Virus record (IMG/VR): IMGVR_UViG_2534682060_000015
Span: 1-28,894 of that record
Origin: a virus
Taxonomy: Duplodnaviria; Heunggongvirae; Uroviricota; Caudoviricetes
Direction: 5' to 3' (one strand)
DNA length: 28,894 bases
Part shown: in pieces, positions 1,255-16,414 of the stretch
Layout: each line of letters begins with the position of its first letter
How positions within the stretch are numbered: the stretch's first letter is position 1
Notes under the pieces: generated by a model
The model's database searches: none
Seen by the model: only the letters and a program-made list of their open reading frames with translations
What the model was told of the DNA's origin: nothing
Translations under genes and position numbers: made by a program

Positions 1255-1368
1255 ATAAAACCGGGTGATGCAAAAGTAGCCATTTGATTCACAAGGCCAT
1301 TGACGCATCGCCCGGTTAGTTTTAACCTTGTCCACCGTGATTCACGTTCGTGAACATGTCCTTTCAGG

Positions 1369-1444
1369 GCCGATATAGCTCAGTTGGTAGAGCAGCGCAT
1401 TCGTAATGCGAAGGTCGTAGGTTCGACTCCTATTATCGGCACCA
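1369..1444 (+). tRNA. thrW: tRNA-Thr (anticodon CGU)
   Basis: 76-nt sequence GCCGATATAGCTCAGTTGGTAGAGCAGCGCATTCGTAATGCG...GGTTCGACTCCTATTATCGGCACCA with acceptor stem pairing, D-loop AGCTCAGTTGGTAGAGC, anticodon loop with CGT, T-loop GGTTCGACTCC and 3' CCA; its position after proA matches thrW. Confidence 0.88.
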
Positions 1445-1445
1445 T
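1428..1445. repeat. attL core: 18-bp TCCTATTATCGGCACCAT at the 3' end of tRNA-Thr, repeated exactly at 15636..15653
   Basis: Exact 18-bp identity between 1428..1445 and 15636..15653 found by eye; the flanking bases differ (c/t upstream, t/c downstream). Classic duplication of a tRNA 3' end by site-specific integration. Confidence 0.75.
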
Positions 1446-1461
1446 TCTAACGTTTCCCCAA

Positions 1462-1546
1462 GTCTACTAAAGTTCACTGAAACCCCTTATACTCTGCGCT
1501 TTACAGCCCCTTTTAGTATTTCTACGTCTACTAAAGTTCCCTGAAA
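1462..1546. repeat. two direct 21-bp repeats GTCTACTAAAGTTC(A/C)CTGAAA (1462..1482 and 1526..1546), candidate integrase arm-type sites
   Basis: Near-identical 21-mers 64 bp apart, between the att core and the integrase gene. Confidence 0.45.
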
Positions 1547-1610
1547 TCTACGGTCGTTTGGGGGTACTTATGGGGGTATTTGTTGTTCGGTCTATAGGAG
1601 GTACCCCCAA

Positions 1611-2825
1611 GTGAAACTAAACGCCCGCCAGGTGGACACCGTCAAACCTAAAGATAAGCCTTACAAGCTGGCTGATGGTGGTGGTTTGTATCTCTTGATT
1701 AAACCTAATGGCGGCAAATACTGGCGGCTCAAGTATCGTGTAGCAGGCAAAGAGAAGCTGTTAGCGCTTGGCGTGTATCCTGAAGTCACATTGGCCGATG
1801 CTCGGGCAAAACGTGAAGAAGCCAAAAGGGGGATCGCTGGGGGTATCGATCCTATGGAAGCGAAACGGGAAGAAAAGATTGCCCGTGAAACTCAGTTAAA
1901 CAATACATTCAAAGATATTGCCCTTGAGTGGCACAGCAGCAAACTAAAAAAATGGTCTGCTGGGTATGCTTCAGACATCCTGGAGGCTTTCAACAAAGAT
2001 GTGTTCCCTTACATTGGCAAAAAACCAATAGCTGATATCAAACCGCTTGAACTGTTGAATGTGCTACGGCGCATTGAGGGGCGCGGCGCTACAGAAAAGG
2101 CCAAAAAGGTTAGGCAGCGCTGCGGGGAAGTTTTCCGTTACGCAATAGTCACCGGCCGTGCTGAGTATAACCCTGCTCCGGATCTCACCAGTGCGATGCA
2201 AGGGCATGACTCCAATCATTATCCTTTCCTCACACCAAAGGAATTGCCTGATTTCTTCAAGGCTTTGTCAGGATATACAGGAAGCGCGTTAGTAGTTTTA
2301 GCCGCTCGTCTGCTGATTATAACCGGCTTGCGTACCGGCGAACTCCGCGGGGCATTTTGGGATGAAATCAATATCAATAAGGCGGTCTGGGAAATACCAG
2401 CCTCACGCATGAAAATGCGTCGCCCTCATATAGTGCCATTGTCTGAGCAGGCTCTTTCGCTTATTGGGCAGATTAAAGAACTAACTGGCAATTATCCGCT
2501 TATGTTTCCTGGTCGTAATGATCCAAGAAAAACAATGAGTGAGGCCAGCATAAACCAAGTATTTAAGCGCATTGGTTATAACGGAAAGGTTACTGGCCAC
2601 GGTTTCCGACACACTATGAGCACCATTTTGCATGAGCAGGGCTATAACACTGCGTGGATAGAAACGCAGCTCGCGCACGTCGATAAAAACTCAATTCGTG
2701 GCACATACAACCATGCGCAATATCTGGATGGGCGGCGGGAAATGCTTCAGTGGTACGCTGATTATATGGATTCGCTCGAGCATGGCGGAAATGTGGTGCA
2801 TTGTGAGTTCGGAAAATGCGGGTGA
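1611..2825 (+). CDS. int: P4-type tyrosine integrase (404 aa)
   Basis: GTG start at 1611 with AGGAGG at 1596..1601; N-terminus MKLNARQVDTVKPKDKPYKLADGGGLYLLIKPNGGKYWRLKYR is typical of the P4-integrase arm-binding domain; C-terminal catalytic region contains HGFRHT...LAH...Y; located directly downstream of a tRNA. Confidence 0.9.
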   Translation: MKLNARQVDTVKPKDKPYKLADGGGLYLLIKPNGGKYWRLKYRVAGKEKLLALGVYPEVTLADARAKREEAKRGIAGGIDPMEAKREEKIARETQLNNTFKDIALEWHSSKLKKWSAGYASDILEAFNKDVFPYIGKKPIADIKPLELLNVLRRIEGRGATEKAKKVRQRCGEVFRYAIVTGRAEYNPAPDLTSAMQGHDSNHYPFLTPKELPDFFKALSGYTGSALVVLAARLLIITGLRTGELRGAFWDEININKAVWEIPASRMKMRRPHIVPLSEQALSLIGQIKELTGNYPLMFPGRNDPRKTMSEASINQVFKRIGYNGKVTGHGFRHTMSTILHEQGYNTAWIETQLAHVDKNSIRGTYNHAQYLDGRREMLQWYADYMDSLEHGGNVVHCEFGKCG

Positions 2826-2952
2826 CTGGTTGAGTATACAGTAGTAGACTTTGAGCGATTAAGAAAAGGCTGTGTCTAGGGTCGCTCCCGAAAATCCGTA
2901 CACCTCGGCGGACTGGCACAGCCACTACGGTAGAGGGCGCAGAGGTGTGCGT

Positions 2953-3723
2953 ATGGTTGATATTCATGCCGAATTAAATGAATACAAAAAAGAGTTTATT
3001 TATTTACGTGATTTTCTTGATGATGTATTTAAAGTTGTTGATGCTAATATTTCAGAAGTCATTACCTGGATACTCAAGAGAATAAATACAGTAAATCCAG
3101 GCATTACCCTGTACACAGTAAATTCATTAAATGAGGTGGAGCTTTATTCTTCGGATCCGTTTGAGTGGAGATCTGATTTTAACTTTCTTTATGCAAAACT
3201 GGATACGGTTAGGGAGCGTGGTTGTTTACCTTGTGAGAGGGATGAGAGTGGTTTTCTGGTATCTGGTTATTGGGAAGATGCCGAATTTGAGGCAATGGGA
3301 TTCAGAAGAAATGAAATTTTCGAAATTTTCCCAGAAATCCTTGACGGGTTAATGAATCTGGAATGTGCTGACTCTTCTGAAAATAACGAGGCGCAAGGAA
3401 GCAATATTGAACATAAAGAGTTGCGTACAGATGATGATTTTTTATCCCGAATTGCAATGCTGGAAAAAGAAAATGAATCGTTAAGGGCGCGGGTAAATCA
3501 GTTAGAAAAGGAGCGCCCGATTTTGTTAAAGGCGTATCGTGATGATGACCCATTGTATCTGGCTATCGATATTAGAAACAGAGAGTGGGCCAATTACGAC
3601 CCAGAGAATGATCGCGCAACTAGGGGAAACCAGGGCGCGATTACTACTGAGCTTGAAAAACGAGGTTTTACCTCCCGACAGGCCGCATCTATTGAGCTTG
3701 TCGCCTGTCCTATCAAACGATGA
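2953..3723 (+). CDS. hypothetical protein with coiled-coil segment (LEKENESLRARVNQLEKER); AT-rich orphan gene next to integrase
   Basis: ORF 2872..3723 in the track; ATG at 2953 preferred (agagg a few nt upstream); AT-rich codon usage contrasts with proA and int. No recognisable family. Confidence 0.5.
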   Translation: MVDIHAELNEYKKEFIYLRDFLDDVFKVVDANISEVITWILKRINTVNPGITLYTVNSLNEVELYSSDPFEWRSDFNFLYAKLDTVRERGCLPCERDESGFLVSGYWEDAEFEAMGFRRNEIFEIFPEILDGLMNLECADSSENNEAQGSNIEHKELRTDDDFLSRIAMLEKENESLRARVNQLEKERPILLKAYRDDDPLYLAIDIRNREWANYDPENDRATRGNQGAITTELEKRGFTSRQAASIELVACPIKR

Positions 3724-3762
3724 AGCCTTACCCTAGTGGTATCTCATGTTTTGTTCGCGTCT

Positions 3763-3842
3763 CACCCTAAGGGTAATCAGACCTCACCCTTAGGGTATTT
3801 TTGTATGCTTTCCCATCAATTTTACTATTACCCTTAGGGTAA
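3763..3842. promoter_or_regulatory. three copies of the palindromic motif (C/T)ACCCT(A/T)AGGGTA (3763..3776, 3785..3797, 3829..3842) upstream of the AlpA-like gene
   Basis: CCCTAAGGG/CCCTTAGGG self-complementary cores repeated three times in the intergenic region 3724..3943; candidate operator or activator binding sites. Confidence 0.5.
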
Positions 3843-3943
3843 AAATATTCCCGATAACCATTAGACCTGAGAGCATTAAAATATTCGTTATTTCTGTGCC
3901 ATGATTACCTCGTCAAATTGAGTAGACGTTATGAGGTAAATAT

Positions 3944-4141
3944 ATGTCAAATACGCTTATTCGTTTAACGGAAGTTCAGCGTAGAACTGGATATAGCAAG
4001 GCATGGATTTATCGCCTTATGGGGCAAGGTAAATTTCCTGCATCAGTTAAAATTGGCTCGCGAGCGATTGCTTTCGTTGAGAGTGAAATTGACGAGTGGA
4101 TTAATCAGCGTATTGCGGAATCACGCGGAACAGCTACCTGA
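3944..4141 (+). CDS. AlpA-family HTH transcriptional regulator / excisionase-like protein (65 aa)
   Basis: MSNTLIRLTEVQRRTGYSKAWIYRLMGQGKFPASVKIGSRAIAFVESEIDEWI matches the AlpA/Vis-type pattern (RL.EV...G.S...IYRL...G.FP...K.G.R...W...EI..W); gagg upstream of the ATG. Confidence 0.8.
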   Translation: MSNTLIRLTEVQRRTGYSKAWIYRLMGQGKFPASVKIGSRAIAFVESEIDEWINQRIAESRGTAT

Positions 4142-4219
4142 TTAAATGGCTACGGGGCCAGAAGTCCCAGCTATCCACCAGCAAATAAAAAGTAACTTAA
4201 TTCGATAGCAGGAGTTTTT

Positions 4220-5020
4220 ATGAAACTGCGAAAAACGCCCGTACAGGGGCAGGGCTTCGTTCGGCCTGAAAACCAGAGCCAACAAAATTTCTGCGAAATT
4301 ATCCCGGTTAGTTCCGGCGTTATTGGCGGGCGTGAAACCAATATTGTTAGCGCCAGAGCGTTGCATAAGGTGCTGGGTGTGAAGCGTGATTTCACAACTT
4401 GGATTAAAGGACGCATTGATGAGTACGGATTTAAAAAGGGCGTGGATTTTGAATTCGTAGAAAATTTGACCTCCCCCAATCCGGTGAGCGCAAAATCTCG
4501 CCAACGTGTAGAGCACGACTACCTGAGCACTATCAACATGGCGAAAGAACTGGCGATGGTCGAGCGCACCGAACAGGGGCGCGCCGTTCGTCAGTACTTT
4601 ATCAAATGCGAGGAGGAGCTACACAAGGTAGCGCCAGTGCGTTCCGCAGTGTTACGCCGGGAACTGAAAGCCCGTATCACAGTTGCCAGCTACTTTAAGC
4701 CAATGTGTGCCGCGCTGGAGGCGTACCGGGCTGAGCTGGGTAAAAACACTCTACAGCACCACTACACCACGGAAGCCAATATGCTGGCGCGTATCGTGCT
4801 GGGTGGCATGACTGCAAAACAGTGGGCGCAGGCGAACGGCATCACAGGCGAACCACGCGACCACATGAGCACGTTGCAGCTTGAGCATCTTTCTTACCTT
4901 AAGCAGAGCAATATCACGCTGATTGAGTTAGGCCAGGACTACCACCAGCGGAAAGCTGAATTAATTCGTCTTTCGCAGCGTTGGTTAGCCCGTCGCATGG
5001 AGGAAAACAGCCATGTGTAA
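4220..5020 (+). CDS. phage antirepressor-like protein (AntA/AntB-type N-terminal domain)
   Basis: Segment SARALHKVLGVKRDFTTWIKGRIDEYGFKKGVDFEF resembles the AntA/AntB antirepressor N-terminal domain; ORF 266 aa. Confidence 0.55.
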   Translation: MKLRKTPVQGQGFVRPENQSQQNFCEIIPVSSGVIGGRETNIVSARALHKVLGVKRDFTTWIKGRIDEYGFKKGVDFEFVENLTSPNPVSAKSRQRVEHDYLSTINMAKELAMVERTEQGRAVRQYFIKCEEELHKVAPVRSAVLRRELKARITVASYFKPMCAALEAYRAELGKNTLQHHYTTEANMLARIVLGGMTAKQWAQANGITGEPRDHMSTLQLEHLSYLKQSNITLIELGQDYHQRKAELIRLSQRWLARRMEENSHV

Positions 5021-5440
5021 CGCTCTGACCGTTACAAAAAGAAAAAGCGCCCCGTTGCCGGAGCGCCTTTGTGAACAAGTCGCTTACTGCGCCATATTGC
5101 TTACTGTCTACGAGGCAGATTATAGCGTTGTGGTCGTACAGAGTGAAGGCGCTGATCACTGTTATCACAGTAAGCCAGAAATGCAGAATATTTTGCTGCA
5201 AAATGCCGTTAGCCACGCTGTCCGGAAAGCAAAAAATACTGCTGGTGGTGCGACTGATGCAATTTCTTCTGGTCGTTCAGTGCTGAATAATCTGACATTT
5301 GATGCCGTTCTGGAGAAAACTAAGGCGACCGCAAAGTGGCACCGGTGGGTATTACGACAAATCAAACTTGAACATATTGCCAACAGCGGTGTATTTGCGG
5401 TCGGTGGGAAAAGCGTAACCGGAAGAAAATTCCGGTGGGG

Positions 5441-5656
5441 CTATTCCTGCTCTTTAATATCGCTATGTCGCGATGTTTTCCAGGTATGTGGCCCTAATTT
5501 TGTGCGCCTGTACTCTTTAAGGAACGTCTCAAGGACAAACGCACACGGCGCGAATTTGTCTGATTCATGCTCGTGCGTCATATTTTTGCGACGTCTCTTT
5601 CGGGTTTGTGATGGTATTTTTGTTAACTTTTTATTGTTCATAATGGCCTCCTGCAT
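5441..5656 (-). CDS. small basic hypothetical protein (up to 71 aa; true start uncertain)
   Basis: Minus-strand ORF directly downstream of the RHH-like gene, same orientation; lysine/arginine-rich (KRRRK). Confidence 0.3.
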   Translation of the reverse strand: MQEAIMNNKKLTKIPSQTRKRRRKNMTHEHESDKFAPCAFVLETFLKEYRRTKLGPHTWKTSRHSDIKEQE

Positions 5657-5704
5657 AGCAATGCGCCGTAGTTCCTCACATCACGGCACTGATAGTGGTT
5701 ATTC

Positions 5705-5878
5705 CTACTCTTTGGCCTTGCGCAGCTGGCGGTATTCAACTTCTCGCTTTAATGCTGCTGTAACAAACTGCCCTGTACTTTCACCTGGCATTTTTACCGC
5801 CTCAACATTGTTCATTACTTCATGCGGAACTCTTGCCGCAACGGTTTGTGATTTCGCGTTTACTGCTTTTGTCGCCAT
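5705..5878 (-). CDS. small ribbon-helix-helix-like DNA-binding protein (57 aa), candidate switch regulator
   Basis: Hand-translated minus-strand ORF below the 60-aa track cutoff: MATKAVNAKSQTVAARVPHEVMNNVEAVKMPGESTGQFVTAALKREVEYRQLRKAKE; RVPHEV...G.S...FV..AL pattern fits an Arc/CopG-type fold; divergent from the + strand operon starting at 6078. Confidence 0.45.
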   Translation of the reverse strand: MATKAVNAKSQTVAARVPHEVMNNVEAVKMPGESTGQFVTAALKREVEYRQLRKAKE

Positions 5879-5928
5879 GTTGTGTACCCCTCATGAAAAA
5901 CAAATGCAGTATGCAGAAAAAAAAATAA

Positions 5929-5980
5929 GTGTTCAACACTTGACGTGTTTAACACCTGAAATTAGATTGGTGTTCAACAC
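5929..5980. promoter_or_regulatory. three near-palindromic operator-like sites GTGTT(C/T)AACAC (5929..5939, 5945..5955, 5970..5980) in a divergent intergenic region
   Basis: Three copies of an 11-bp near-palindrome between the minus-strand RHH-like gene (start 5878) and the + strand gene starting 6078. Confidence 0.55.
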
Positions 5981-6077
5981 CTTGTTGAAGCAAGGTGCAG
6001 AAACGACGAAACCCGGCAGTGCGTCAACACTAACCGGGCTTCTAACCACCAACGATAACGAGAGTATCGAGGTAGCT

Positions 6078-6614
6078 ATGAGAAATCATACCACACACCC
6101 GCAAGGGCGGGACTCGCACAACCTGAATAAACCCGATGTAAAAAACCTGTTGCTCGCCACTGCCAGCCAAGGCTATGATTTATACGCACCAGCAAAATCT
6201 GGTGCCGGGATTGGCGTCCTGGTATTTAACGAAGCGCACAACACGCGCCCTGCGTGTTTTTTTGTGCCGGATAGTCACACCTTATCAATGGTGGGCTGTA
6301 TGGGGGCGGAGCAATCCGCGCCGGGTTCTTCGTTAACCGGTTACGCCAACCCCGTACAGTCCACCGCCAGCGAAATTGGCGTTTCCTGCGGTGGGTTTAT
6401 TAACCCTAACGAAGAGGCTGCCAATATGGCTACAGTCCCTACCCTTGTACATTCCCAAACTGCCTTTATCTGGCGCTTTATCATCTTTGGCGCGTCAGAA
6501 TCCCAAATCATCCACGTCACCGCCTGGACGGAACGCGAAGCGCGTAACCATTGCCCGTCCGGTTGTGTCGCTGTATTCGCCGCCCGTATTCGTCAGGAGG
6601 TGCGCCATGATTAA
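6078..6614 (+). CDS. hypothetical protein (178 aa from ATG 6078; possibly shorter, from ATG 6426)
   Basis: C-terminal part of the 533-aa track ORF; ATG 6078 has GAGG at 6069..6072; only the region from about 6078 on reads like protein (...IWRFIIFGASESQIIHVTAWTEREARNH...). The upstream part of the track ORF looks like non-coding read-through. Confidence 0.4.
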   Translation: MRNHTTHPQGRDSHNLNKPDVKNLLLATASQGYDLYAPAKSGAGIGVLVFNEAHNTRPACFFVPDSHTLSMVGCMGAEQSAPGSSLTGYANPVQSTASEIGVSCGGFINPNEEAANMATVPTLVHSQTAFIWRFIIFGASESQIIHVTAWTEREARNHCPSGCVAVFAARIRQEVRHD

Positions 6615-6900
6615 TCTGTCAATCTCTGACCTTAACCGCATTCAGTATGACGAGAAATTTACCGGGAGCGTAAAAGCATTGAGGAAGCAGGCTGGATGTG
6701 CACGACTTATTAAGCCGTTAAGGTGTCATCATGATGATGATCCGCACTTTACCGGACGTATGGTGAATCACTACAAAAAAGGCGTTGAGGTATCCTCTGA
6801 ACAGCTACGAGCTGGTTGCTGTTTCGGCACACCACCGGAATTTAGCGAACTGCTGACCCGTTGCGATTACCGGATCATTCAGGGGGAAAGTCATGGGTAA
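6607..6900 (+). CDS. hypothetical protein (97 aa)
   Basis: ATG 6607 with AGGAGG at 6595..6600; overlaps the previous stop (ATGATTAA); MINLSISDLNRIQYDEKFTGSVKALRKQAG... Confidence 0.55.
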   Translation: MINLSISDLNRIQYDEKFTGSVKALRKQAGCARLIKPLRCHHDDDPHFTGRMVNHYKKGVEVSSEQLRAGCCFGTPPEFSELLTRCDYRIIQGESHG

Positions 6901-7093
6901 TCAGCCAGCAACAATGACAATTACCCTGAATGTGCCAGATGATTTCACCGGGCGCGTACTGGTTTACCTGGATAAAGGGAAAGTGAAATCACAATGCCGA
7001 CTGCGAAATAATGAAATAGTAAGTACGGTAGAAGGCTTTTCTGAACTCTGTATTCGTGCAGGAATAAAACCGGAACTGCTGACAGGAAAATAA
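6893..7093 (+). CDS. hypothetical protein (66 aa)
   Basis: ORF start overlaps the upstream stop; part of a tightly packed + strand operon. Confidence 0.45.
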   Translation: MGNQPATMTITLNVPDDFTGRVLVYLDKGKVKSQCRLRNNEIVSTVEGFSELCIRAGIKPELLTGK

Positions 7094-7097
7094 AACC

Positions 7098-7388
7098 ATG
7101 AAAAAGAAAAATTCTGGCTTTACTGCCAGCGGCCTCTCTCGGTCTGCAATTCGCTCTGGCGATATTTACCGCGACACCAGACGTGGGGGACGAGTGGTTA
7201 TTCGTCACGTTACGCCAGGAAATATCACCTACCGCCGTGAGGCTTACGAATATGACTGCGTAATGCCGCGCCGTCAGTTTGAGCGTGATTTTATTCTGGT
7301 GGAAAACAAAGAACAGGCAGTAGCGAGACGTGCAGCCTCGAGTATTAAAAAAATCCGGGCAATGTTGGTAGCTGGGGGTAAGAAGTGA
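7098..7388 (+). CDS. hypothetical protein (96 aa)
   Basis: ORF with stop overlapping the start of the large ATPase gene (7385). Confidence 0.5.
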   Translation: MKKKNSGFTASGLSRSAIRSGDIYRDTRRGGRVVIRHVTPGNITYRREAYEYDCVMPRRQFERDFILVENKEQAVARRAASSIKKIRAMLVAGGKK

Positions 7389-9517
7389 AAAACGCGCCGA
7401 ATTTAAAATATCAGCCGAAGGATAAATTCACTGAGGCAATCATTTTTGCCGGGATGGATGCTTACGCTCACGCTCAACACTGGATTGAAAGCGAAGGACG
7501 GAAATATGGCGATAGCGTGCCGCCTGTTTACCTGGGGCCAAAGCAACTGGCAGATCTGGCTAATATCCGCATTGTCGACGATGAACGTCGTTTTGCGCGC
7601 GTCTATCTCGCGGGGGAGATCGAACCAATCCAGATTAATGCTATCGCTGAAAGGCTGGCGCTGGCTGGCGTAAAGGATGCGAAATTATACAAAGGTATCC
7701 CTGACCAGGATCCGGAGAACTGGCGCGACTACCTGCAACGGATCCGTGAACAGGCAGAGCGCGGGGAAACCCTGACTGAAGGAATCGGAATAGCTGGTGG
7801 CTCACCCGGTAAAACAGGCCCCATGAAACCGCATATTACCGAAAAAGACGGGGCGCTCTGGTATATCGAGCCAATCCCCAACACCAGGGCAGAGGAGATG
7901 AATTATAAAGAAACCTGGCTGAGTGACCGGATGCGCACGGCAGGTATTGGTAATGACGGAAGGGAGGCGTATCTGATTATTGAAATGATCCCGGAAGGGA
8001 CACAAAAAATTATTTACGAAGCGATGCCGCGCAATGAAATCGGTATGCCCGCAGGATGGGCGCGATTACGTGGGCGGGGAGTTGCAATCACTACCAGCGC
8101 CCATTTATTGAACAAACTGGCGGAATACCTGCAACGTCATGGAGATCGCACGGTGTGGGAGGTCACATCAACAGCAGGTTGGCATTGTGGAGCCTATGTT
8201 ATGCCTGATGGCGAGGTGATTGGTGTGCCTGATCGTCCCGTAGCATTCTGCGGCGGATCTGCCGCCATCAAAGGCTATATTGTCAGGGGCACGGTGCATG
8301 AATGGCGAAATAATGTTGCTTCTCTGATGCGTGGCAATCACTCAATGATGCTTGGGGTGCTGGTCGGGCTGGCAGCCCCGCTAAATTCCCTTGTGGGGGG
8401 TAGTTGTTTTGGTATTCATCTTTTCGCGCAGTCGTCAGCGGGGAAAACCACGACTGTGGAGGCCGCCACCAGCCTTTATGGCGACCCTGAAATGCTTAAA
8501 CTCTCGTGGGATGCCACCCGGCACGGGTTGACAGTGGAAGCAGCTGCACGTAATGACGGTTTTATCCCTATTGATGAAATTGGTCAGGGAGGAAGGGTTA
8601 ATGACATTGCGCAATCCGCCTACAGCCTGTTTAACGGTGTGGGCAGGATTCAGGGGCGCAAGGACGGCGGCAATCGTGCGGTAATGCGCTGGAAAATAGC
8701 GGCACTAAGCACCGGAGAAGAAGATTTTGAAACCTTCCTGTTAAAAGGGGGAATTGCCCCAAAGGCAGGGCAACTGGTGCGACTGCTAAGCATTCCCTTT
8801 ACCGATACAACGGTGTTTAACGGTTATGACGATGGTGATCAACATGCCAGGGCCATAAAGCGACTTTCATCAAATTATTGTGGCGCTGCGGGACGTGAGT
8901 GGGTGCGCTGGTTATCCGCTCACAAGGAGTTGGCTATCAACACCACTTCAGATAAAGAAAATGCCTGGCTGGGAAATCTGCCTGAAAATGCCTCGTCACA
9001 GGTAAGGCGAGTGGCATCGCGATTCGCCATGCTGGATGCAGCCGGAGAGCTTGCTACCGCAATTACTGGCTGGACAGCTGAAGAATGCCGGGAAGCAACG
9101 CAACGGGCTTTTGATGACTGGCTACAGGATTTCGGGCTGGAAAACCGGGAAAAATATCAGGTCATCAGTCGCGCCCGTGACTTTATTCAGCGCCATGCCC
9201 TGAGTCGTTTTCAGCCTTATACCTACGGGAAAAGCAATGGGGATATGGATAACCACTATGCATCCCGTATAAGCAATCTTGCAGGCTATCTTGTCAGCGG
9301 TAAGCGTGAGGATGGAAAACCCGAATATCACATTATCCCGTCAGTGTTTGATAGCGAAATTTTATGCGGTATATCCAGGAACTTTGGGTGTCAGGCGCTG
9401 GAAGAAGCCGGAATGCTGGTTTGTGCAGAACCTGGTCGCTGGACATCGAAAACAGTGAAGATTAACGGAACACAGCAGCGATTTATCGTGCTGATTGATC
9501 AGGCAGAAGACGAATAG
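7385..9517 (+). CDS. large replication protein, P-loop NTPase (primase/helicase-like, 710 aa)
   Basis: Walker A AQSSAGKTT and Walker B IPIDEIG in the central region; size and position (after regulators, before an iteron field) match the replication proteins of P4-like/PICI-type satellites. Could belong to the DUF927-type family, but that is not verified. Confidence 0.6.
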   Translation: MKNAPNLKYQPKDKFTEAIIFAGMDAYAHAQHWIESEGRKYGDSVPPVYLGPKQLADLANIRIVDDERRFARVYLAGEIEPIQINAIAERLALAGVKDAKLYKGIPDQDPENWRDYLQRIREQAERGETLTEGIGIAGGSPGKTGPMKPHITEKDGALWYIEPIPNTRAEEMNYKETWLSDRMRTAGIGNDGREAYLIIEMIPEGTQKIIYEAMPRNEIGMPAGWARLRGRGVAITTSAHLLNKLAEYLQRHGDRTVWEVTSTAGWHCGAYVMPDGEVIGVPDRPVAFCGGSAAIKGYIVRGTVHEWRNNVASLMRGNHSMMLGVLVGLAAPLNSLVGGSCFGIHLFAQSSAGKTTTVEAATSLYGDPEMLKLSWDATRHGLTVEAAARNDGFIPIDEIGQGGRVNDIAQSAYSLFNGVGRIQGRKDGGNRAVMRWKIAALSTGEEDFETFLLKGGIAPKAGQLVRLLSIPFTDTTVFNGYDDGDQHARAIKRLSSNYCGAAGREWVRWLSAHKELAINTTSDKENAWLGNLPENASSQVRRVASRFAMLDAAGELATAITGWTAEECREATQRAFDDWLQDFGLENREKYQVISRARDFIQRHALSRFQPYTYGKSNGDMDNHYASRISNLAGYLVSGKREDGKPEYHIIPSVFDSEILCGISRNFGCQALEEAGMLVCAEPGRWTSKTVKINGTQQRFIVLIDQAEDE

Positions 9518-9549
9518 CACAACCTACGCTCGCAGAGGGTCAAAAATCG

Positions 9550-9822
9550 CGGGATATGCGGGATATCGGGATATGAAAAATATATTGCAGAAATATCAGT
9601 TATTTATGTGTTGTTGTCGTATCCCGCTGTATCCCGCCGTATCCCGGTATTTAGGTTTACGAGTGGTTGTAAAACAAACAAAATAACCGTATCCCGGAAT
9701 GTATCCCGCAATATCTTATTGATGCATAAGCAAAAAAAAACTTACCGGGATATGGCGGGATATGAAAAATCACATAACACCATGAAATAAATAAGTTTTT
9801 TTGTTCATATCCCGATATCCCG
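9550..9822. repeat. iteron field: at least 13 copies of GGGATAT / ATATCCC in both orientations, putative origin of replication
   Basis: Direct GGGATAT repeats at 9551..9575 and 9747..9763; inverted ATCCCG copies at 9621, 9631, 9641 (exact 10-bp spacing), 9691, 9703, 9809, 9817; the 13-mer GGGATATGAAAAA occurs twice; interspersed A/T runs. Confidence 0.6.
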
Positions 9823-9974
9823 GTAAAAAATGTTTTTTTACGCCTTATAGAGTACAGAAAAAAGATTGTTCAAATTTTGTATTACGATTGACTACTGTCA
9901 GCCATCCCACCCGGAAAAGGCATAAAAGCTGACAGGTAACTGACAATGAGACAGTTTTATTTTTACGTGCCGAT

Positions 9975-10532
9975 ATGACGGCAACAATGATGGGGCAGAG
10001 CATGACAAAACTGACCATTAACAGAAAACCGAAAGGTATTTACGGCACGCCGCAGAAAACGACGCAGGCGGCACAGAAGCAGGATAAAACCACATCGGCA
10101 CATAAAGTGATGCCCGGTAACCAGAAAGCGCAGCAGAAGCCCACAGGGGCGACACCGTGGCGGCATATGACCAAACGCCAGCGCAAAAACCGCAGGCGCG
10201 TTAACCGCCTCACTGAGTTGTGGCCTGACTTATTCTGCAGGGAAGCACCGAAGCCACTTAAGGTGGGGATATTCAATGACCTGGTGCAGGATATCGCCGT
10301 CAGGGAGCTGGCATTCGGTCCAGGGGCATTACGTGCGTCACTGGCATCTTATGCGCAGTCACCGCGCTATTACCGAGCCCTGGTTGCTGGTGGGGTGCGC
10401 TATGACCTGAAAGGCCAGCCGTGCGGCGAGGTGACACCACAGAAACAGAACGAGGCAGAAATGCGGCTGATGGCGCTGAATGAGAAGCGCAAACGTCAGC
10501 GCCGGGCAGCAAAGGAGAAAACAGGCGCATGA
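9975..10532 (+). CDS. ProQ/FinO-domain RNA-binding protein with basic N-terminal extension
   Basis: LTELWPDLFCREAPKPLKVGIFNDLVQDIAV...LRASLASYAQSPRYYRALVAGGVRYDLKGQPCGEVTPQ aligns by eye with the E. coli ProQ N-terminal domain (FLAERFPHCF...RPLKIGIFQDLV...[35 protein letters not shown]). Start codon uncertain (ATGs at 9975, 9987, 10002). Confidence 0.7.
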   Translation: MTATMMGQSMTKLTINRKPKGIYGTPQKTTQAAQKQDKTTSAHKVMPGNQKAQQKPTGATPWRHMTKRQRKNRRRVNRLTELWPDLFCREAPKPLKVGIFNDLVQDIAVRELAFGPGALRASLASYAQSPRYYRALVAGGVRYDLKGQPCGEVTPQKQNEAEMRLMALNEKRKRQRRAAKEKTGA

Positions 10533-10816
10533 TTCACGACAGCAAAGCGGAAGCACTGGAAGCGCGTGGTCTGGACCGGAGAGCGGCGGAAAGATGGGCA
10601 GAAGTCATAATGCGAGTGGATGGTGATAAGGCTCGGGAGGAGGCGGCAAAACGTCGCGCGGAATGTATCCGCAAGGCAGCCCGCCCACCAGCAAAGCTGG
10701 ATAATTTCGAAGAGATGCGCGAAACCATCAGCCAGGCACATGCTGGTATGGGATTACATCAGCCCAATGGTAAGGCATTCAGGAAATACCCCGGGGCAAA
10801 AAATTACAATCCATGA
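10529..10816 (+). CDS. hypothetical protein (95 aa), start overlapping the FinO-like stop
   Basis: ATGA overlap at 10529..10532; charged, Ala/Arg-rich; no family recognised. Confidence 0.4.
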   Translation: MIHDSKAEALEARGLDRRAAERWAEVIMRVDGDKAREEAAKRRAECIRKAARPPAKLDNFEEMRETISQAHAGMGLHQPNGKAFRKYPGAKNYNP

Positions 10817-10820
10817 GAGA

Positions 10821-10846
10821 GGCCGGGATTTTACCCGGCTTTTTTG
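10821..10846 (+). terminator. rho-independent terminator
   Basis: GCCGGG (10822..10827), loop ATTTTA, CCCGGC (10834..10839), followed by TTTTTTGT. Confidence 0.7.
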
Positions 10847-11017
10847 TGTCAGCAAAAAAGCCCACAGACAGCAGTGTTGCGGGGGGTGTTTTCAGGTGGT
10901 TGAAGTCATTGGGAAGAACGTGAACATTACGCGCAAATGTTTCACAAATTGCAATAAAATGGATTGTTATTTCAGTTTATGCAATCATGAGCATTGCTTT
11001 GATCAGGAGAGATGATT

Positions 11018-11185
11018 ATGAGAAAAGCCAGCGTAAAACCCGTTTTACTCGCTCGTGAGCAGATTGAAGCATTACAGCGCATCCAGGACGAAGAGCGTCA
11101 AAAATCTGTGCTTGGTGTGGCCCCGTCGATTCATGTTATTGCCAGGCAACTGATGGACAAGGCACTTAAAGAGGTGAAACTGTGA
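11018..11185 (+). CDS. small hypothetical protein (55 aa)
   Basis: Hand-found ORF MRKASVKPVLLAREQIEALQRIQDEERQKSVLGVAPSIHVIARQLMDKALKEVKL with AGGAGA at 11005..11010; stop overlaps the GTG start of the next ORF. Confidence 0.45.
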   Translation: MRKASVKPVLLAREQIEALQRIQDEERQKSVLGVAPSIHVIARQLMDKALKEVKL

Positions 11186-11454
11186 AATTAAATATCAGAG
11201 TGGATAAACGCCAGCTATGGCAGAAAAAAGAGAACAGTGAGGCATTCAGGGATTTGCTGGTGGAAAATCTTCAGCACCGTTTCAGTGGAGAGCTGCCAGA
11301 CGCGCTGGGGAAAAAACTGGAATCTCTGACGGTGGAAATTGGCGATTATGGTTTTGTTGATGTTGAAAGCACGACTGCCAACACAGAAATCGTAAAACAG
11401 GTCGTCAACGATGTAATGAAAACCACGCTTAGCCAGCCATCCTGGCGTAACTGA
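11182..11454 (+). CDS. hypothetical protein (90 aa)
   Basis: Track ORF, translationally coupled to the upstream small ORF. Confidence 0.45.
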   Translation: MKLNIRVDKRQLWQKKENSEAFRDLLVENLQHRFSGELPDALGKKLESLTVEIGDYGFVDVESTTANTEIVKQVVNDVMKTTLSQPSWRN

Positions 11455-11553
11455 ATCCGCAAGGGGCGGTGATTGCCCCTCTCCGCCATACCCACAACGA
11501 ATTCCTTTTTCGCATGAAGTGAATGTTTATCGTATATGCATGAGGTGAGCCAC

Positions 11554-12078
11554 ATGTTGATGAGTAAAGCCGAATACGCCAAATACAAAGGTGTAAGCCG
11601 CCAGACAGTTTACGACTGGATCGAGAAAGGCGAGGTGGTCATGTCGGGTAAAAAAATTGATATGGAGGCTACAGAGTGGCGAAACAGCCCATCATCACAG
11701 GGAAAAGACACTGTTTCTGAAATGTGGCCTGAGAGAACGCTGGAAATGACGTGGGGCGAGTTCTGGAAAGCTGTCAGGGACAGAGACGGTAAAATTCCTG
11801 CGCCAGTAACGGACGATGACATAAAGCAGCGTGTGCAGGATGCAGCCGGGGAATTAGGCTGGGAAGCACACTTTCTTGATGATGGTGCTATCTGCCTTGA
11901 GGATGATGAAGGACAGCATTACTTTGAACAATACAATTTGCGGGGTAATGCCAGGCTGGCAATTCGTATGCTGCGCTGTGAACTCTGCTATGTTGCAGGT
12001 GATTATCCTGATGAACTTGAATCATGGAGCGAGGCAGGACTAAACGCCCTGGCTGAATGGGAGAAAACAGGTCATTAA
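11554..12078 (+). CDS. HTH DNA-binding protein, Nu1/TerS-like N-terminus (candidate packaging-redirection or site-recognition protein)
   Basis: SKAEYAKYKGVSRQTVYDWIEKGEVV resembles the winged-HTH N-terminus of lambda-type small terminase Nu1 (from memory); ATG 11554 with GAGGTGA at 11542..11548; track ORF begins at 11536. Confidence 0.45.
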   Translation: MLMSKAEYAKYKGVSRQTVYDWIEKGEVVMSGKKIDMEATEWRNSPSSQGKDTVSEMWPERTLEMTWGEFWKAVRDRDGKIPAPVTDDDIKQRVQDAAGELGWEAHFLDDGAICLEDDEGQHYFEQYNLRGNARLAIRMLRCELCYVAGDYPDELESWSEAGLNALAEWEKTGH

Positions 12079-12086
12079 CGGCCGCA

Positions 12087-12414
12087 AAAAGTGTCAAGTT
12101 GAGCAGCTTGCAAGGTTGACACTTTACACTCTGAACACGAAAAAGTGTCAACCTCGCTGTAAGCCCCGCCATTACTGGTCTTGCGCCATGTTTGCCACAT
12201 CAAAAGGCCGAAAAAATCGCGAAAAGTGTCAAGTTGCCATGCTTAGAAATGCTAAGTTTTGTTAAGGTTTTTCGCGGAAAAGTGTCAACTCAACCTAACG
12301 GATCTTAACGCTCACGCACAACAGCTGCAGCCAACGTGTAAAGGACTGATGCGAAGCAGGGCAGCTGTCAGCCTGTTATGGTTTGTTATGCCTTACCTGG
12401 GGAAAGTGTCAACC
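12087..12414. repeat. array of six copies of (C)GC(G)AAAAGTGTCAA(G/C) immediately downstream of the HTH gene
   Basis: Copies at 12087..12098 (+), 12116..12124 (inverted), 12141..12153, 12222..12233, 12277..12289 and 12402..12414; the extended 16-mer is conserved in three copies. Confidence 0.6.
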
Positions 12415-12621
12415 GCTACCGTTTCAGAAAGCTTCAATTGCAGAGCGTTGGCAGCACCTGTCAAAACTTGTCACCCGCCGGCACAGCCAGCGGGAATTTT
12501 TTGCTCTAAACGCTCTAAGTTACAGTTGATGTGATCTGTAAACTGCGGTTGCAACTAGTAATCGTATAAAACCATCAGTTGCAGTTTTACCTAACTATAA
12601 TCACAATGATAGTTTATATAA

Positions 12622-14121
12622 TTATACATTGTATGCGAGGTAATCATATAATGCTAAAAGTTTCCGATAATCAGTATGAGATTTGTCCTTAAACTCCCGG
12701 ACATGTTTTTCTAAATCTTCTAAGGGTATATGTTCATCATGAGCATTGAAGAAAATAATATTTTGTAATTTGCTATAACTATCAGAATGTTTAGCGTAAA
12801 TATCTTCAATGGTATGTTCTACTATTCTTTGATTCTTGGGTAACCTTGAATAGTTTAGATTTATTAATCTTTTTTGATTTTTCATTAATGATGTTAAGCA
12901 TTTAACACCTGGGCTGAATTTATGAAAAGCATAAGCTGGGAAATATGATCTTTTATTGATGGTGAACTTGTCAAGCAACTCGACAACATGTGATTCCTTA
13001 TTTGAAATTAGATCAAAATAGTTTTCCATCATCTCCTGAGGTGTTTGCATGTATATTTTTATAGAGTTAACAGAACCGACGGCTAGAACAAGCTCATCAT
13101 TTCTGAGTGTCTCCAAATCCCCAACAAGTTTTACTTTTATGTCTCCACCTTCCTTTATTTTACCAAAGATACTCTCTACTCTGCGTATATCCATTACCGA
13201 AACTGGTAAGTGGAGTTGAGCAAGTTCTTTATATATATCTGAGAAGTTATCTGTAACGATTTTATTAATGCTAATTAACCCTGCATCTTCTACTTCGAGA
13301 TCGTGAGAGACAATGTTTAAATTATCAATACCTTCTTCTCTTTCAATAAGAAGGAAGTTGTTTTTTATTTTTTCTGCAATTTTAGAACGAGGTGGTATGT
13401 ATGAGAATATTGTTTTTAATACTTTTTTTATATTCGGATCACCTATTCTATATCCCATAAATATAATCGGATTATGTATAAACAAGGATAGGAGTTGAGC
13501 ACGAATTAATTCATATTTTTTATCAAAATGAATATAGTCATCACTGGTTATTATTATGGATTCTGGTTTGCTAACGCATCCGTGAATTTTATAAACAGAA
13601 CCATAAGGATTGCTTAAAAGTATATCATTTCCAATAACAGGATTATAACCAATTGCACTTTCGATAAAATTATCATAGTTTGTCGTAATCACAGAGGCAA
13701 TGTTTTTTGAGGCCTTTACTAATTCAGATATTTCATCTTGAACTCCTAATTTTAAATCTGTGATATTAACCACCTGTGAAAGATAGATTTTAAATCTGCT
13801 GATATTTGAGGATATATCTTCCGACTCGTAGTATAAGTCATTGATATATTTGAACTTTCCATTCCTGTCTGCTTTTAGTGTTGCATCAAAAATTTGCTCT
13901 AATTGCGTTGCTACTTTTGGAAGGTCTACAATACCATCTTTATTGCTGTTTTCTCTGACAAGATCTTTATAGAGTTCATTAGAATTTGTCAGGTCAATAC
14001 TAATTTTCTCTAAGAGTGCCGGCCAGCTATAAGAAATTGATAAGTATCTCATGCTGAAACCTGCTCCAACAAATAATATTGGGTGGTTTCTGTAGCCTTT
14101 TAGAAAATCCGTTATATTCAT
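12622..14121 (-). CDS. SIR2-domain protein (499 aa): N-terminal SIR2-like NAD+ hydrolase domain plus unassigned ~300-aa C-terminal domain; candidate defence effector
   Basis: Rossmann motif PILFVGAGFS (aa 14-23), TTNYDNF (aa 146-152) and YKIHG (aa 178-181), the residue pattern of defence-associated SIR2 domains (ThsA/DSR-type Asn and His); GGAGG four nt upstream of the ATG (rc of 14122..14130); strongly AT-rich. Confidence 0.7.
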   Translation of the reverse strand: MNITDFLKGYRNHPILFVGAGFSMRYLSISYSWPALLEKISIDLTNSNELYKDLVRENSNKDGIVDLPKVATQLEQIFDATLKADRNGKFKYINDLYYESEDISSNISRFKIYLSQVVNITDLKLGVQDEISELVKASKNIASVITTNYDNFIESAIGYNPVIGNDILLSNPYGSVYKIHGCVSKPESIIITSDDYIHFDKKYELIRAQLLSLFIHNPIIFMGYRIGDPNIKKVLKTIFSYIPPRSKIAEKIKNNFLLIEREEGIDNLNIVSHDLEVEDAGLISINKIVTDNFSDIYKELAQLHLPVSVMDIRRVESIFGKIKEGGDIKVKLVGDLETLRNDELVLAVGSVNSIKIYMQTPQEMMENYFDLISNKESHVVELLDKFTINKRSYFPAYAFHKFSPGVKCLTSLMKNQKRLINLNYSRLPKNQRIVEHTIEDIYAKHSDSYSKLQNIIFFNAHDEHIPLEDLEKHVREFKDKSHTDYRKLLALYDYLAYNV

Positions 14122-14212
14122 TTGACCTCCGAGATATATTAGCGGTAATCATTAAAATTTGTAAGAACACAGCTCAAGTATGTATTTAGCTGTAGAGATA
14201 AGAATTTACTTG

Positions 14213-15340
14213 TTATTGACCATTTGGATAGTAAATTTTCATAAGCCTCTCTTTTTCTTTGTTGAATTCTTTATCAAAATCAAATTTTTTGTCTAAATTA
14301 GAATGTAAGTCATTTAACGCTTTAACAAGAACCCAAGCGCTGTGGTGGATGAATGGGTTTAATCCAATAATGTTTCCTGCAGAATTATCGTCAACTTTCT
14401 CAACTGCTAAAATCGCTTGGATTTTTTTACAGCTTTCCTGAATATTCCAATCTGAAACATGTAGTAATAATGCAGATAAAGCCATGAGTGGGTTGTTTGC
14501 TTTAATAGATGTAGGGGTGTAACTAATAATCATACGGAGTCGAGGGTGGTAGTCTCGAATCAGTCTCGCCATTCGAGTAGCTATCTCATATTTTTCGTTG
14601 AGAATTGATCTGTCAAATGTTGACGTCCCAGAGTCTTTAATTAATATAGTTCTTGCTTTTTTGACTACTGATTTAAGTCTTACATTCCAAAGCTCAGGAT
14701 TCTCATGACGGTCTAGATAGAATTGAGGATGCTTGAAATAAAGAGATTGATATACTTCCTCGTTGATATCGAACCAACTTTTGTTTATGGCGCTGAGATC
14801 GACAACATAATTATCATTGTTTCTCTTATATCTAATCAATGAGGCCTTTGCAAGGTAGATTATGTGAGGGCTTAAATTAAATGTAAAAGTGCCTTTTTCT
14901 CTTAAATCTAAGAACCATTGGCGCATGTTACGTATATCTTCTTGCGTAAAAATCTTCTCCTGAATTCCCGCACAGACCATAAGACCTATTAAGCGTGTCG
15001 CTTCAGAACCCGAGCGCATAAAATCAATTTGGCCTTCATTTGAAACAACGTTCAACTTATCATCGCCAGTATAAAAATCACAAAATGGGAGGTGAGAGTC
15101 TTTACCTAGATTGTCTCGAAATGCAAAGTGTGCTTGCTTTACAACTTTGCCGTTACTGAGAGATCTTCCTTCCGAAACGTAATAACCACCAGAAACATTG
15201 CATGCCGGGCATTCAACATCCTCTTTAACAAAATCTCTAAAACTTAGAGAAGGATCTGAGTTGCTACGTTCGAAAAGGTTTTCCAACTGCTTAGCATCCA
15301 GCTCACGCTTAAATTTTCTAGAATAGGCCGTTATCGTCAT
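14213..15340 (-). CDS. hypothetical protein (375 aa from ATG 15340; track ORF extends to TTG 15406), upstream partner of the SIR2 gene
   Basis: ATG at 15340 has AAGGAG 6 nt upstream (rc of 15347..15352); no Walker A, TIR or other motif recognised by eye; contains CPAC and PFCDFY cysteine motifs; ~90-bp gap to the SIR2 gene, same strand. Confidence 0.6.
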   Translation of the reverse strand: MTITAYSRKFKRELDAKQLENLFERSNSDPSLSFRDFVKEDVECPACNVSGGYYVSEGRSLSNGKVVKQAHFAFRDNLGKDSHLPFCDFYTGDDKLNVVSNEGQIDFMRSGSEATRLIGLMVCAGIQEKIFTQEDIRNMRQWFLDLREKGTFTFNLSPHIIYLAKASLIRYKRNNDNYVVDLSAINKSWFDINEEVYQSLYFKHPQFYLDRHENPELWNVRLKSVVKKARTILIKDSGTSTFDRSILNEKYEIATRMARLIRDYHPRLRMIISYTPTSIKANNPLMALSALLLHVSDWNIQESCKKIQAILAVEKVDDNSAGNIIGLNPFIHHSAWVLVKALNDLHSNLDKKFDFDKEFNKEKERLMKIYYPNGQ

Positions 15341-15365
15341 TTCGGTCTCCTTTCGAAGGGAGCTT

Positions 15366-15393
15366 AACTTTATCATAGGATGATCATAAAGGG
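15366..15393 (-). promoter_or_regulatory. imperfect palindrome CTTTATCATAGGATGATCATAAAG just upstream of the cassette RBS
   Basis: Arms CTTTATCA / TCATAAAG with one mismatch; holds two TATGAT hexamers on the minus strand; 14 nt upstream of the AAGGAG RBS. Confidence 0.35.
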
Positions 15394-15635
15394 AGCTGTA
15401 CGGCAAACATCACTAAGGTTGGGCCTGAAACACAAATTCCCTAAGTGCAATTTTGACGTCTAACTTACTTGATGTGCTTCAAGGCGGTTCTTACATTGTG
15501 GTATCAACAACAATAGAATGTTTTTTAAACAATTTAGATAGCAACAAGCAAGTCTGGGGGTACTTTTGGGGGTATCTAATGATTGCGTAATAGTTTTTTT
15601 ATATACATATCAATGTGTTGATTTCTACAATTTGT

Positions 15636-15653
15636 TCCTATTATCGGCACCAT
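15636..15653. repeat. attR core: second copy of TCCTATTATCGGCACCAT
   Basis: Exact 18-bp copy of tRNA-Thr 3' end (1428..1445); the 21-bp motif GGGGGTACTT(A/T)TGGGGGTAT lies inside the island near both cores (1560..1580 and 15556..15576). Confidence 0.75.
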
Positions 15654-16261: not shown

Positions 16262-16414
16262 ATGAAAAACATTGCAGCTATCAAACGTAATAACCGCAAG
16301 ATTCACGCTCGTAAGTTCCTGTCTACGCCAGAAGGAAAAGCCTGGCTAGAGCGTAAACAGAGAGAGAACGAAGAAAGAAAACTCCTTAGTGAGTTGAAAT
16401 GGCTTAAGGATTGA
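16262..16414 (+). CDS. small basic hypothetical protein (50 aa)
   Basis: Hand-found ORF MKNIAAIKRNNRKIHARKFLSTPEGKAWLERKQRENEERKLLSELKWLKD with AGAGG 6 nt upstream; followed by a long hairpin. Confidence 0.35.
   Translation: MKNIAAIKRNNRKIHARKFLSTPEGKAWLERKQRENEERKLLSELKWLKD

Follow-up and report, generated by a model that had tools for sequence, protein, structure and literature searches.

A likely PICI-type satellite at the 3' end of thrW and the candidate arm-type sites of its integrase

The tRNA gene thrW is a well-known integration hotspot, and the question raised by the locus studied here is what kind of element starts at its 3' end, where this element stops, and which sites its integrase would recognise. 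The window, i.e., the whole stretch of DNA that was analysed, has 28,894 nt and was placed by genome comparison in the proA-thrW region of Escherichia coli. Our answer, in which we have high confidence, is that positions 1446-15635 constitute a 14.2-kb satellite of the phage-inducible chromosomal island (PICI) type, inserted at the 3' end of thrW and recombining by the arm-site mechanism proposed below. A PICI-type satellite at thrW with this core is already known and was published as EcCIMP1, the PICI of E. coli MP1 (Pick, Stadel & Raivio, ISME J 2025, PMC11773190). The added value of the present analysis is modest, and consists of a refined crossover segment and comparative evidence for what appears to be a modular code joining arm sites to the N-terminal domain of the integrase.

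The island is bounded by the 18-mer TCCTATTATCGGCACCAT, found twice in the window, both times on the plus strand (Table 1), with no third copy in the whole window when up to two mismatches were allowed and a chance expectation of 0.01. Since the bases beside the two copies differ on either side, the identity block is exactly 18 bp long, and since the tRNA ends at position 1444, the left copy consists of the final 17 nt of the tRNA and one further base. This agrees with the first-pass annotation of this DNA, which had reported an exact, two-copy direct repeat of the tRNA-Thr 3' end and an integrase gene next to attL; the open reading frame (ORF) adjoining attL indeed carries integrase domains. 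Two other claims stood in part. A second motif of 21 bp had been described just inside both ends, and its positions were right, but GGGGGTACTTWTGGGGGTAT at 1560-1579 and 15556-15575 has 20 nt with one mismatch (19/20 identical, chance expectation 0); the pair can be extended leftward to 24 nt at 92% identity (repeat family D11). Likewise, the two 21-bp direct repeats announced between attL and int are present (1462-1482 and 1526-1546, 20/21 identical, family D17), but only the first 12 nt of each, GTCTACTNAAGT, are conserved in relatives. An inverted GGGGGTA directly before the GTG start codon of int was absent from that annotation.

The boundaries were assessed in 5426 complete E. coli genomes with a synthetic 328-nt probe for the empty site, composed of thrW joined to the yagP'/paoD flank. 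The probe was matched at 100% identity over its 328 nt, and 948 of the 5426 genomes covered at least 80% of it. In strains M9682-C1 and OkiPb01707, thrW was joined straight to the DNA that stands right of position 15636 in the window, and the match started at the first core base. Strain BCE049 contained the same island, 99.3% identical, which ended in the core and was followed by a different, unrelated lambdoid prophage. A sister island was found alone between thrW and the yagP' flank in strain 55989, with a backbone ~93% identical up to position 12288 and a different cargo, and in O104:H4 C227-11 the two elements were in opposite order at thrW. Given these five configurations, 1446-15635 is, as judged by genome comparison, a discrete module that was inserted independently. 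The empty site, the alternative neighbours, and both tandem orders all fit the attL and attR that had been drawn around a ~14.2-kb element, and the comparison with empty-site strains that the first-pass annotation had suggested thus bears it out; none of the compared genomes had the segment split or bounded elsewhere.

The attR copies of other strains allowed us to narrow the crossover. In BCE049, attR reads TCCTATTATC followed by catttaaa and departs after position 10, and in 55989, O104:H4, and MP1 a one-base deletion is present, giving TCCTATTATC-GCACCATT. Because these foreign copies keep only TCCTATTATC, strand exchange must, on this comparison, be confined to TCCTATTATC[G], the initial 10-11 bp of the repeat. 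The segment agrees with the 10-bp core, TCCTATTATC, given for EcCIMP1 by its authors (PMC11773190).

Outside the core, the sequence of interest is the heptamer GGGGGTA, with five copies in the arms of the island and four elsewhere in the window, i.e., nine against 1.4 expected. The direct repeats of the P arm lie 62-80 bp to the left of the core and the P' sites 132-180 bp to its right. The first-pass annotation had listed the repeats as candidate arm-type or accessory sites, and conservation and covariation on both arms now provide strong comparative evidence that they are very probably arm-type integrase sites. The integrase contains N-terminal arm-binding, core-binding, and catalytic domains, and the repeated arm sites flank the core on both sides and are distinct from it in sequence. 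Moreover, the 21-nt P-arm block TGGGGGTACTTTTGGGGGTAT was perfectly kept in the window, 55989, and MP1, surrounded by P-arm DNA that could not be aligned.

The comparison also covered a set of 80 loci from species representatives across Enterobacterales, with integrases 58-95% identical. GGGGGTA-N5-GGGGGTA was found upstream of int in 33 of these loci, mostly at about -51/-39 from the int start, along with the inverted TACCCCC at about -9, and the 33 loci span tRNA-Thr, tRNA-Arg, and tRNA-Gly. At the same three positions, other lineages had GGGGGCA/TGCCCCC, GTGTATAG/CTATACAC, TGTATAG, or GGGGGCC; GGGGGCA, GTGTATAG, and GGGGGCC replaced all sites in concert, and the lineages concerned have integrases whose N-terminal domain has diverged. 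The mean identity to the window Int was 78% over residues 1-90 and 73% over the rest of the protein in the GGGGGTA loci (n = 33), and 63% and 66%, respectively, in the loci without this motif (n = 47). A natural domain swap was observed between loci L016/L017 and L018/L019/L022, where the integrases are 94-96.5% identical over residues 91-404 and 65.6% identical over residues 1-90. In these loci (9820-10270), all three sites change from GGGGGTA to GGGGGCA, while the P' DNA through the TCTAC repeats described below is nearly identical and AlpA is ~90% identical. In agreement, 10 of the 10 elements with a visible attR had a double P-arm site of the same class as their P' sites, 58-62 nt upstream of a tRNA 3'-end copy of at least 10 nt. 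With attR visible, the GTA type includes the elements of the window, BCE049, 55989, C227-11, and MP1, and loci L011, L017, L026, L034, L035, L039, and L088, the GCA type is represented by L028 (at thrW) and L083, and the GTGTATAG type by L073. The motif class thus goes with the N-terminal domain of Int rather than with the core, which is characteristic of arm-type sites. The spacer between the P sites and the core was AT-rich in all 10 P arms (73-85%). A strict site for integration host factor (IHF) was considered as a conserved feature of this spacer and discarded, since the exact consensus was present in only four of the 10 P arms (window, 55989, L011, and L088) and absent in the other six. 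A literature search for GGGGGTA with integrase and attP returned only unrelated primer matches.

A second group of repeats, (A/G)TCTAC, is found between the core and the P' sites, and its positions were kept in 22 aligned relatives. The family shows no dependence on the Int arm class, and some lineages have (A/G)TCAAC instead. When loci with enough downstream sequence were analysed, a close AlpA homologue was detected in 31 of the 42 TCTAC-type loci and in none of the eight TCAAC-type loci, and the 6-mer was present within 60 nt upstream of alpA in 25 of 39 distinct regions versus 4 of 39 controls, counts that are not phylogenetically independent. The alpA-proximal 6-mer lies, besides, within a conserved leader inverted repeat. 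For these two reasons we regard the assignment of the repeats as sites for AlpA or a directionality factor as possible, with a chance slightly below even. A conserved inverted repeat CTCGTAA...TTACGAG, present in the window (3890-3943) and in relatives, spans the ribosome-binding region of alpA, and inside it, at -20 to -32 from the start of this gene, is a (G/A)TAGAC motif. A GTCTACT-like third copy upstream of alpA (3916-3927) was also considered and was not retained, as its 12-mer is not kept in relatives and the 6-mer enrichment is suggestive only. In other PICIs, AlpA activates its own expression from upstream of alpA (PMC11773190; PMC6092414, PMC6739421).

The gene content of the island was established with Pfam and PHROG scans of the ORFs of at least 57 aa taken as genes (Table 1). 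The order int-alpA-antA-C4/isrK (with Ash/Icd-like ORFs)-primase-iteron-ProQ-PerC-cargo, without structural genes, corresponds to the organisation of Gram-negative PICIs; int, alpA, and the primase gene are all on the plus strand, and no structural or lysis family was found among the island ORFs with either scan. The R, HxxR, and Y catalytic motifs of Int are intact, and the protein is 100% identical to that of BCE049, 93.6% identical to that of EcCIMP1, and ~47% identical to the integrases of phages Sf6, HK620, and Kapi1 and to IntS. Relatives of int with the P' arm (at least 80% coverage) were present in at least 505 of the 5426 complete E. coli genomes and also across Enterobacterales. The RF02996 motif directly follows the int stop codon and overlaps the start of an ORF at 2872-3723. 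As for replication, the window contains CGGGATA 15 times, whereas 2.05 copies are expected; 12 copies are packed into a stretch of 273 bp just past the primase gene, and we consider this iteron stretch a candidate origin. An ORF of 533 aa on the plus strand (5013-6614) is probably spurious; it spans isrK, C4, and the Ash-like and Icd-like segments, and its region resembles the immI region of P1 or the immunity-type region of P4, placed within a PICI. In BCE049, the RefSeq annotation of the island lists an ash family pseudogene and an Icd-like protein. The 180-aa helix-turn-helix (HTH) protein was tried as an Rpp or TerS candidate and not retained, as neither phmmer nor a five-sequence profile gave a significant match against the PDB, to RppC and TerS included; the single-sequence AlphaFold model, with a predicted local distance difference test (pLDDT) score of 45.7, was unusable.

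Table 1. Position of the features discussed in the text, numbered from the first base of the window.
Feature	Position	Strand	Evidence or remark
proA	1-1254		Upstream of thrW, likewise in all compared genomes
thrW, tRNA-Thr(CGT)	1369-1444	+	ARAGORN; Rfam tRNA 71.8 bits; 3' end is the integration target
attL core	1428-1445	+	18-bp identity block; probable crossover segment 1428-1437/8, TCCTATTATC[G]
(A/G)TCTAC repeats, P' arm	1462-1551	+	Candidate AlpA (directionality factor) sites, between core and arm sites
Copies of these repeats	1462-1473, 1526-1537; 1520-1525; 1546-1551		GTCTACTAAAGT (first two positions); TTCTAC; ATCTAC
P'1-P'3 sites, GGGGGTA	1560-1566, 1572-1578; 1602-1608	direct; inverted	Candidate arm-type sites; overlap the int ribosome-binding region
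int, P4/IntS-type tyrosine integrase, 404 aa	1611-2825	+	Arm-DNA-bind_3 (4.3e-28), Phage_int_M, Phage_integrase
int-alpA RNA motif (Rfam RF02996)	2869-2936	+	cmscan 45.8 bits, gathering score 35.8
alpA, putative master activator and/or excision factor	3944-4141	+	Pfam Phage_AlpA 2.4e-19; 81% identical to EcCIMP1 alpA
AntA/AntB-family antirepressor	4220-5020	+	Pfam AntA 8.4e-23; PHROG anti-repressor Ant
Immunity-type region	5967-6614	+	Ash-like and Icd-like coding segments
isrK small RNA	6186-6262	+	Rfam 80 bits
C4 antisense RNA	6284-6371	+	Rfam 76.4 bits
DUF4222 protein	7098-7388	+	Pfam
DUF927 primase/helicase	7385-9517	+	Pfam DUF927; PHROG_1139 DNA primase 7.6e-85
Candidate replication origin	9550-9822	both orientations	12 CGGGATA copies around AT-rich DNA; inverted repeats I2, I7
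ProQ/FinO	9975-10532	+	Pfam ProQ
PerC	10529-10816	+	Pfam PerC
Two small ORFs	11012-11454	+	
180-aa HTH protein	11536-12078	+	Weak HTH_17; weak PHROG small-terminase N-terminal match
SIR2-domain protein	12622-14121	-	Pfam SIR2_2; PADLOC PDC-S25 1.9e-139
397-aa partner	14213-15406	-	phrog_12525 match
P1, P2 sites, GGGGGTA	15556-15562, 15568-15574	+	Direct; candidate arm-type sites
AT-rich spacer	15575-15635		77% AT; IHF-consensus match TATCAATGTGTTG at 15608-15620
attR core of the island	15636-15653	+	Also left junction of the next element
Second element, CP4-6 family	15654-28894		Own attR beyond the window
Capsid-E-like protein	23541-24569		
Dit-like protein	26859-27536		
Second-element integrase	27617-28894	-	Unrelated family, DUF6538 + SAM_5; window ends at the start codon

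Next to attR, the island carries a two-gene cargo (12622-15406) with a GC content of 32-35%. The SIR2 protein matched ThsA over the SIR2 domain only in the PADLOC analysis, where its partner of 397 aa had no match; PDC-S25 is a PADLOC candidate system, not a validated one, and the literature search for this name returned one unrelated preprint only. Both genes were always found together, and strain 4/2-1 has them at thrW too, along with the P arm but in another PICI backbone (L088, 16287-19005). At the same position beside attR, where the window has this candidate defence system, sister islands have the PARIS genes AriA/AriB (PADLOC 5e-43 and 3.6e-22), located at 22499-24455 of L004 (E. coli 55989) and at 21074-23030 of L005 (O104:H4). 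On these comparisons the cargo position is an exchangeable defence hotspot, and the SIR2 pair is an exchangeable cargo, probably with an anti-phage role. Defence hotspots in satellites are a known concept. The last part of the SIR2 gene showed a further distribution: the 145 nt at 12593-12737, comprising its 3' end, matched ~540 genomes at ~92% identity, and the matches adjoin truncated integrase pseudogenes annotated as 'Arm DNA-binding domain', e.g., in Nissle 1917, which suggests widespread decayed relatives generated by internal deletion.

Tandem accretion at thrW had been suspected from the foreign look of the DNA past attR, and this DNA turned out to be a separate element of the CP4-6 family with an unrelated integrase. 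In loci L002 and L003, the right-hand thrW copy was located ~145 bp beyond the start of the second-element int; genomes carrying this element alone have their further thrW copy at that distance, i.e., outside the stretch covered by the window. Since the two integrases and their arms are unrelated, the first island should excise alone. Other tandems were observed as well. Right of the EcCIMP1 attR in MP1 (L006), the published 'adjacent unclassified island' has at its start a truncated integrase and a P' arm belonging to this family; it is a decayed sibling, in which the double arm site has collapsed to tgAGGGGAt. In Photorhabdus, tandems at tRNA-Arg (L035, ~17097-17430; L039, ~17114-17450) have a first element of the GGGGGTA class and a second one of the GGGGGCA class.

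The heptamers could also be explained without the integrase, as a hairpin of the int 5' leader (GGGGGUA...UACCCCC) that occludes the ribosome-binding site, or as operators of another regulator, the copy on the attR side being a by-product. Several observations lean this way and weigh against arm-type sites: the inverted copy abuts the Shine-Dalgarno sequence and start codon of int, the P'2/P'3 RNA hairpin around the Shine-Dalgarno has a predicted energy of -36.8 kcal/mol (z = -2.57 versus shuffles), and, from one lineage to another, changes in the direct copy are compensated by changes in the inverted one, from GTA/TAC to GCA/TGC and to GTGTATAG/CTATACAC. The P' sites also physically adjoin the codons of the Int N-terminal domain, so part of the covariation could be linkage, and the far P-arm sites are the critical control, being the only ones that break this caveat. 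A sigma-70 consensus scan of 1300-4300 found no site against 5.1 expected, and none upstream of int; the overlap of the arm sites with the int promoter is thus assumed. However, the hairpin uses only two of the five sites and leaves P'1 and the distant P-arm sites unexplained, whereas P'1 and both P-arm copies, 7-14 kb away, have no inverted partner and still change in concert in 10/10 elements. The motif type tracks the N-terminal domain of Int, with AlpA and the remainder of the integrase conserved at ~90-96% identity, and the homologous sites of KplE1 are demonstrated arm sites of IntS. We consider quite unlikely that a hairpin or foreign operators replace the arm-type function; hairpin and arm sites are compatible, and the hairpin may be an extra layer of int control.

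As for the nature of the element, some findings also speak against an active PICI. The excision and transfer experiments were performed on its relative EcCIMP1; neither a gene for packaging redirection (Rpp, TerS) nor a cos site was identified in the island of the window; and AlpA of EcCICFT073 did not control int expression (PMC6092414, PMC6739421). PICIs are expected at att sites never used by prophages, and thrW hosts the lambdoid prophage of BCE049 and CP4-6-family elements, which share the core and differ in their integrases. Of the other defining traits (Fillol-Salom et al. 2018), the conserved rightward int/AlpA/replication organisation, the lack of structural and lysis genes, and a size (14.2 kb) within ~12-15 kb were observed. 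It could then be argued that the island is a fixed, immobile remnant, the repeat being the fossil of an old integration with no further excision or transfer: neither a helper phage nor a packaging function was identified, the ash-family gene of the BCE049 copy is a pseudogene, thrW neighbours in other strains are clearly decayed (such as the adjacent island in MP1), and the exact island was found in only five complete genomes. Against this, the int ORF and its catalytic motifs, the five perfect arm sites, both exact cores, alpA, the primase gene, and the iterons are all intact; the occurrence in unrelated strains, beside different neighbours and in both tandem orders, implies recent independent integrations; and EcCIMP1, the closest relative studied, is mobile. 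A remnant is, in our judgement, unlikely. Even less likely is a P4-like satellite with a P2-type helper, which would account for the P4-type integrase, AlpA, the epsilon-like Ash, the Icd/kil-like ORFs, the C4/CI-type RNA, the large primase, and a defence hotspot, as such hotspots are known beside int and att in P4-like elements. This classification was rejected, because no Sid, Psu, or Delta/Ogr match was obtained in any island ORF with Pfam or PHROG and the primase is of the DUF927 type; besides, PerC is typical of E. coli PICIs (PMC11773190), and the nearest characterised relative is mobilised by a P22-like phage and classed as a PICI.

For the PICI-type satellite, we propose the following mechanism. 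The attP site would carry the 3' end of thrW, so that integration restores the tRNA at attL and leaves a partial copy at attR. Int would be heterobivalent, with the catalytic and core-binding domains recognising the thrW core and Arm-DNA-bind_3 binding the GGGGGTA repeats, and the AT-rich spacer of the P arm is probably bent. Because the P' sites lie upstream of int, over its ribosome-binding region, it is probable that Int represses its own gene through them, as IntS does in KplE1. A helper phage would induce AlpA, needed for excision, which probably acts in part via the (A/G)TCTAC repeats. The junction expected after excision is ...CAATTTGT-TCCTATTATCGGCACCAT-TCTAACG..., and the circle would replicate from the CGGGATA iterons with the DUF927 primase before being packaged by the helper phage.

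The island call itself is routine, given that excision and transfer have already been demonstrated for a PICI whose integrase is nearly identical and whose core is the same. What may be useful is the recombination-site map for a very common family, comprising the crossover segment, five arm sites, the spacer, and candidate excision-factor sites. The natural domain swaps that tie arm-site variants to the Int N-terminal domain could guide the engineering or prediction of integrase specificity, and the same link could help to delimit tandem islands automatically. We further put forward, tentatively and with a little more doubt than belief, that this large clade of integrases from enterobacterial satellites and islands has a swappable address in two parts: N-terminal domains matched to arm-site classes (GGGGGTA, GGGGGCA, GTGTATAG, GGGGGCC), which recombination would exchange without involving the catalytic domain, and, apart from them, tRNA cores (Thr, Arg, Gly, SeC, and others), with AlpA-matched repeats (TCTAC or TCAAC) setting directionality. 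If this were true, the arm classes would make islands with a common tRNA core orthogonal, and tandem neighbours could coexist without cross-excision; the Photorhabdus pairs of GTA and GCA elements are compatible with it. Such a layer of specificity is not mentioned in the available passages of the PICI papers, nor was a description found in the literature searched.

Among known systems, EcCIMP1 is the closest. Its excision and circularisation upon induction of the Kapi1 helper, the sequenced junction, and its transduction have been reported, as have the requirement of int and alpA for excision, and of alpA also for transfer, the mobilisation by a P22-like phage, and the classification as a PICI (PMC11773190). 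It shares with the island of the window the position at thrW between proA and yagU, the core TCCTATTATC, the tRNA-to-int orientation, identical P and P' arm sites, and the alpA, antA, ash, icd-like, DUF4222, DUF927-family primase, and PerC families. In contrast, EcCIMP1 has 20 kb, with P22-like genes for ejection and morphogenesis as well as a second alpA-like excisionase, whereas the island of the window has 14.2 kb, lacks those genes, and carries ProQ and the SIR2/PDC-S25 cargo; the backbone DNA of the two was largely unalignable by megablast. The available account of EcCIMP1 covers the 10-bp core and does not mention arm-type sites (PMC11773190). A literature search for thrW together with PICI gave no match.

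The EcCICFT073-type PICIs (Fillol-Salom et al. 2018, 2019; PMC6092414, PMC6739421) have the same int-alpA-primase order and rightward, unidirectional transcription. The classical members also share with the island the PerC homologue, a size of ~12-15 kb, the lack of structural or lysis genes, and iterons beside the primase gene, in the island those of the candidate origin; they differ in that no Rpp homologue or cos was detected here, where the P1/P4-like C4/isrK-icd-ash region and AntA are present and prophages use the att site as well. P4 satellites have in common with it the integrase family, integration at tRNA 3' ends, an AlpA/Vis-type regulator, epsilon/Ash, kil/Icd, a CI/C4-type RNA, and variable defence cargo near the att site, while sid, psu, and delta are missing from the island and its primase belongs to another family. 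The cryptic prophage CP4-6 of E. coli K-12 (thrW ... intF-ptwF) shares the use of this thrW core, has its integrase at the distal end beside a thrW pseudo-copy, and is otherwise unrelated to the island, since integrase family, arms, and gene content differ.

The best mechanistic parallel is the KplE1 (CPS-53) module, formed by IntS and TorI at argW (Panis et al. 2010, PMC2951348; PMC3509656). There, attL overlaps the intS promoter, IntS and TorI repress intS, the arm-type P' sites of IntS share TAAA, and a 135-bp attR suffices in vitro (PMC2951348; PMC3509656); five cooperative TorI sites in attL have the same location as the TCTAC repeats of the window (PMC3509656). IntS has the same three Pfam domains as the window Int, and inspection of the K-12 sequence showed GGGTAAAAtagcGGGTAAAA ~55 nt upstream of the KplE1 attR core and, immediately ahead of the intS ATG, GGGTAAAA together with two inverted copies of TTTTACCC. 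Both systems thus have a tRNA-to-int layout, a double arm site in direct orientation placed ~55-60 nt upstream of the attR core, further direct and inverted arm sites just before the int start, and directionality-factor sites, candidate ones in the island, between the core and P'. They differ in the arm motif, GGGTAAAA in KplE1 and GGGGGTA here, and in the tRNA target; moreover, the gene for TorI is located at the distal end of a prophage, whereas alpA is found 1.1 kb downstream of int in a satellite.

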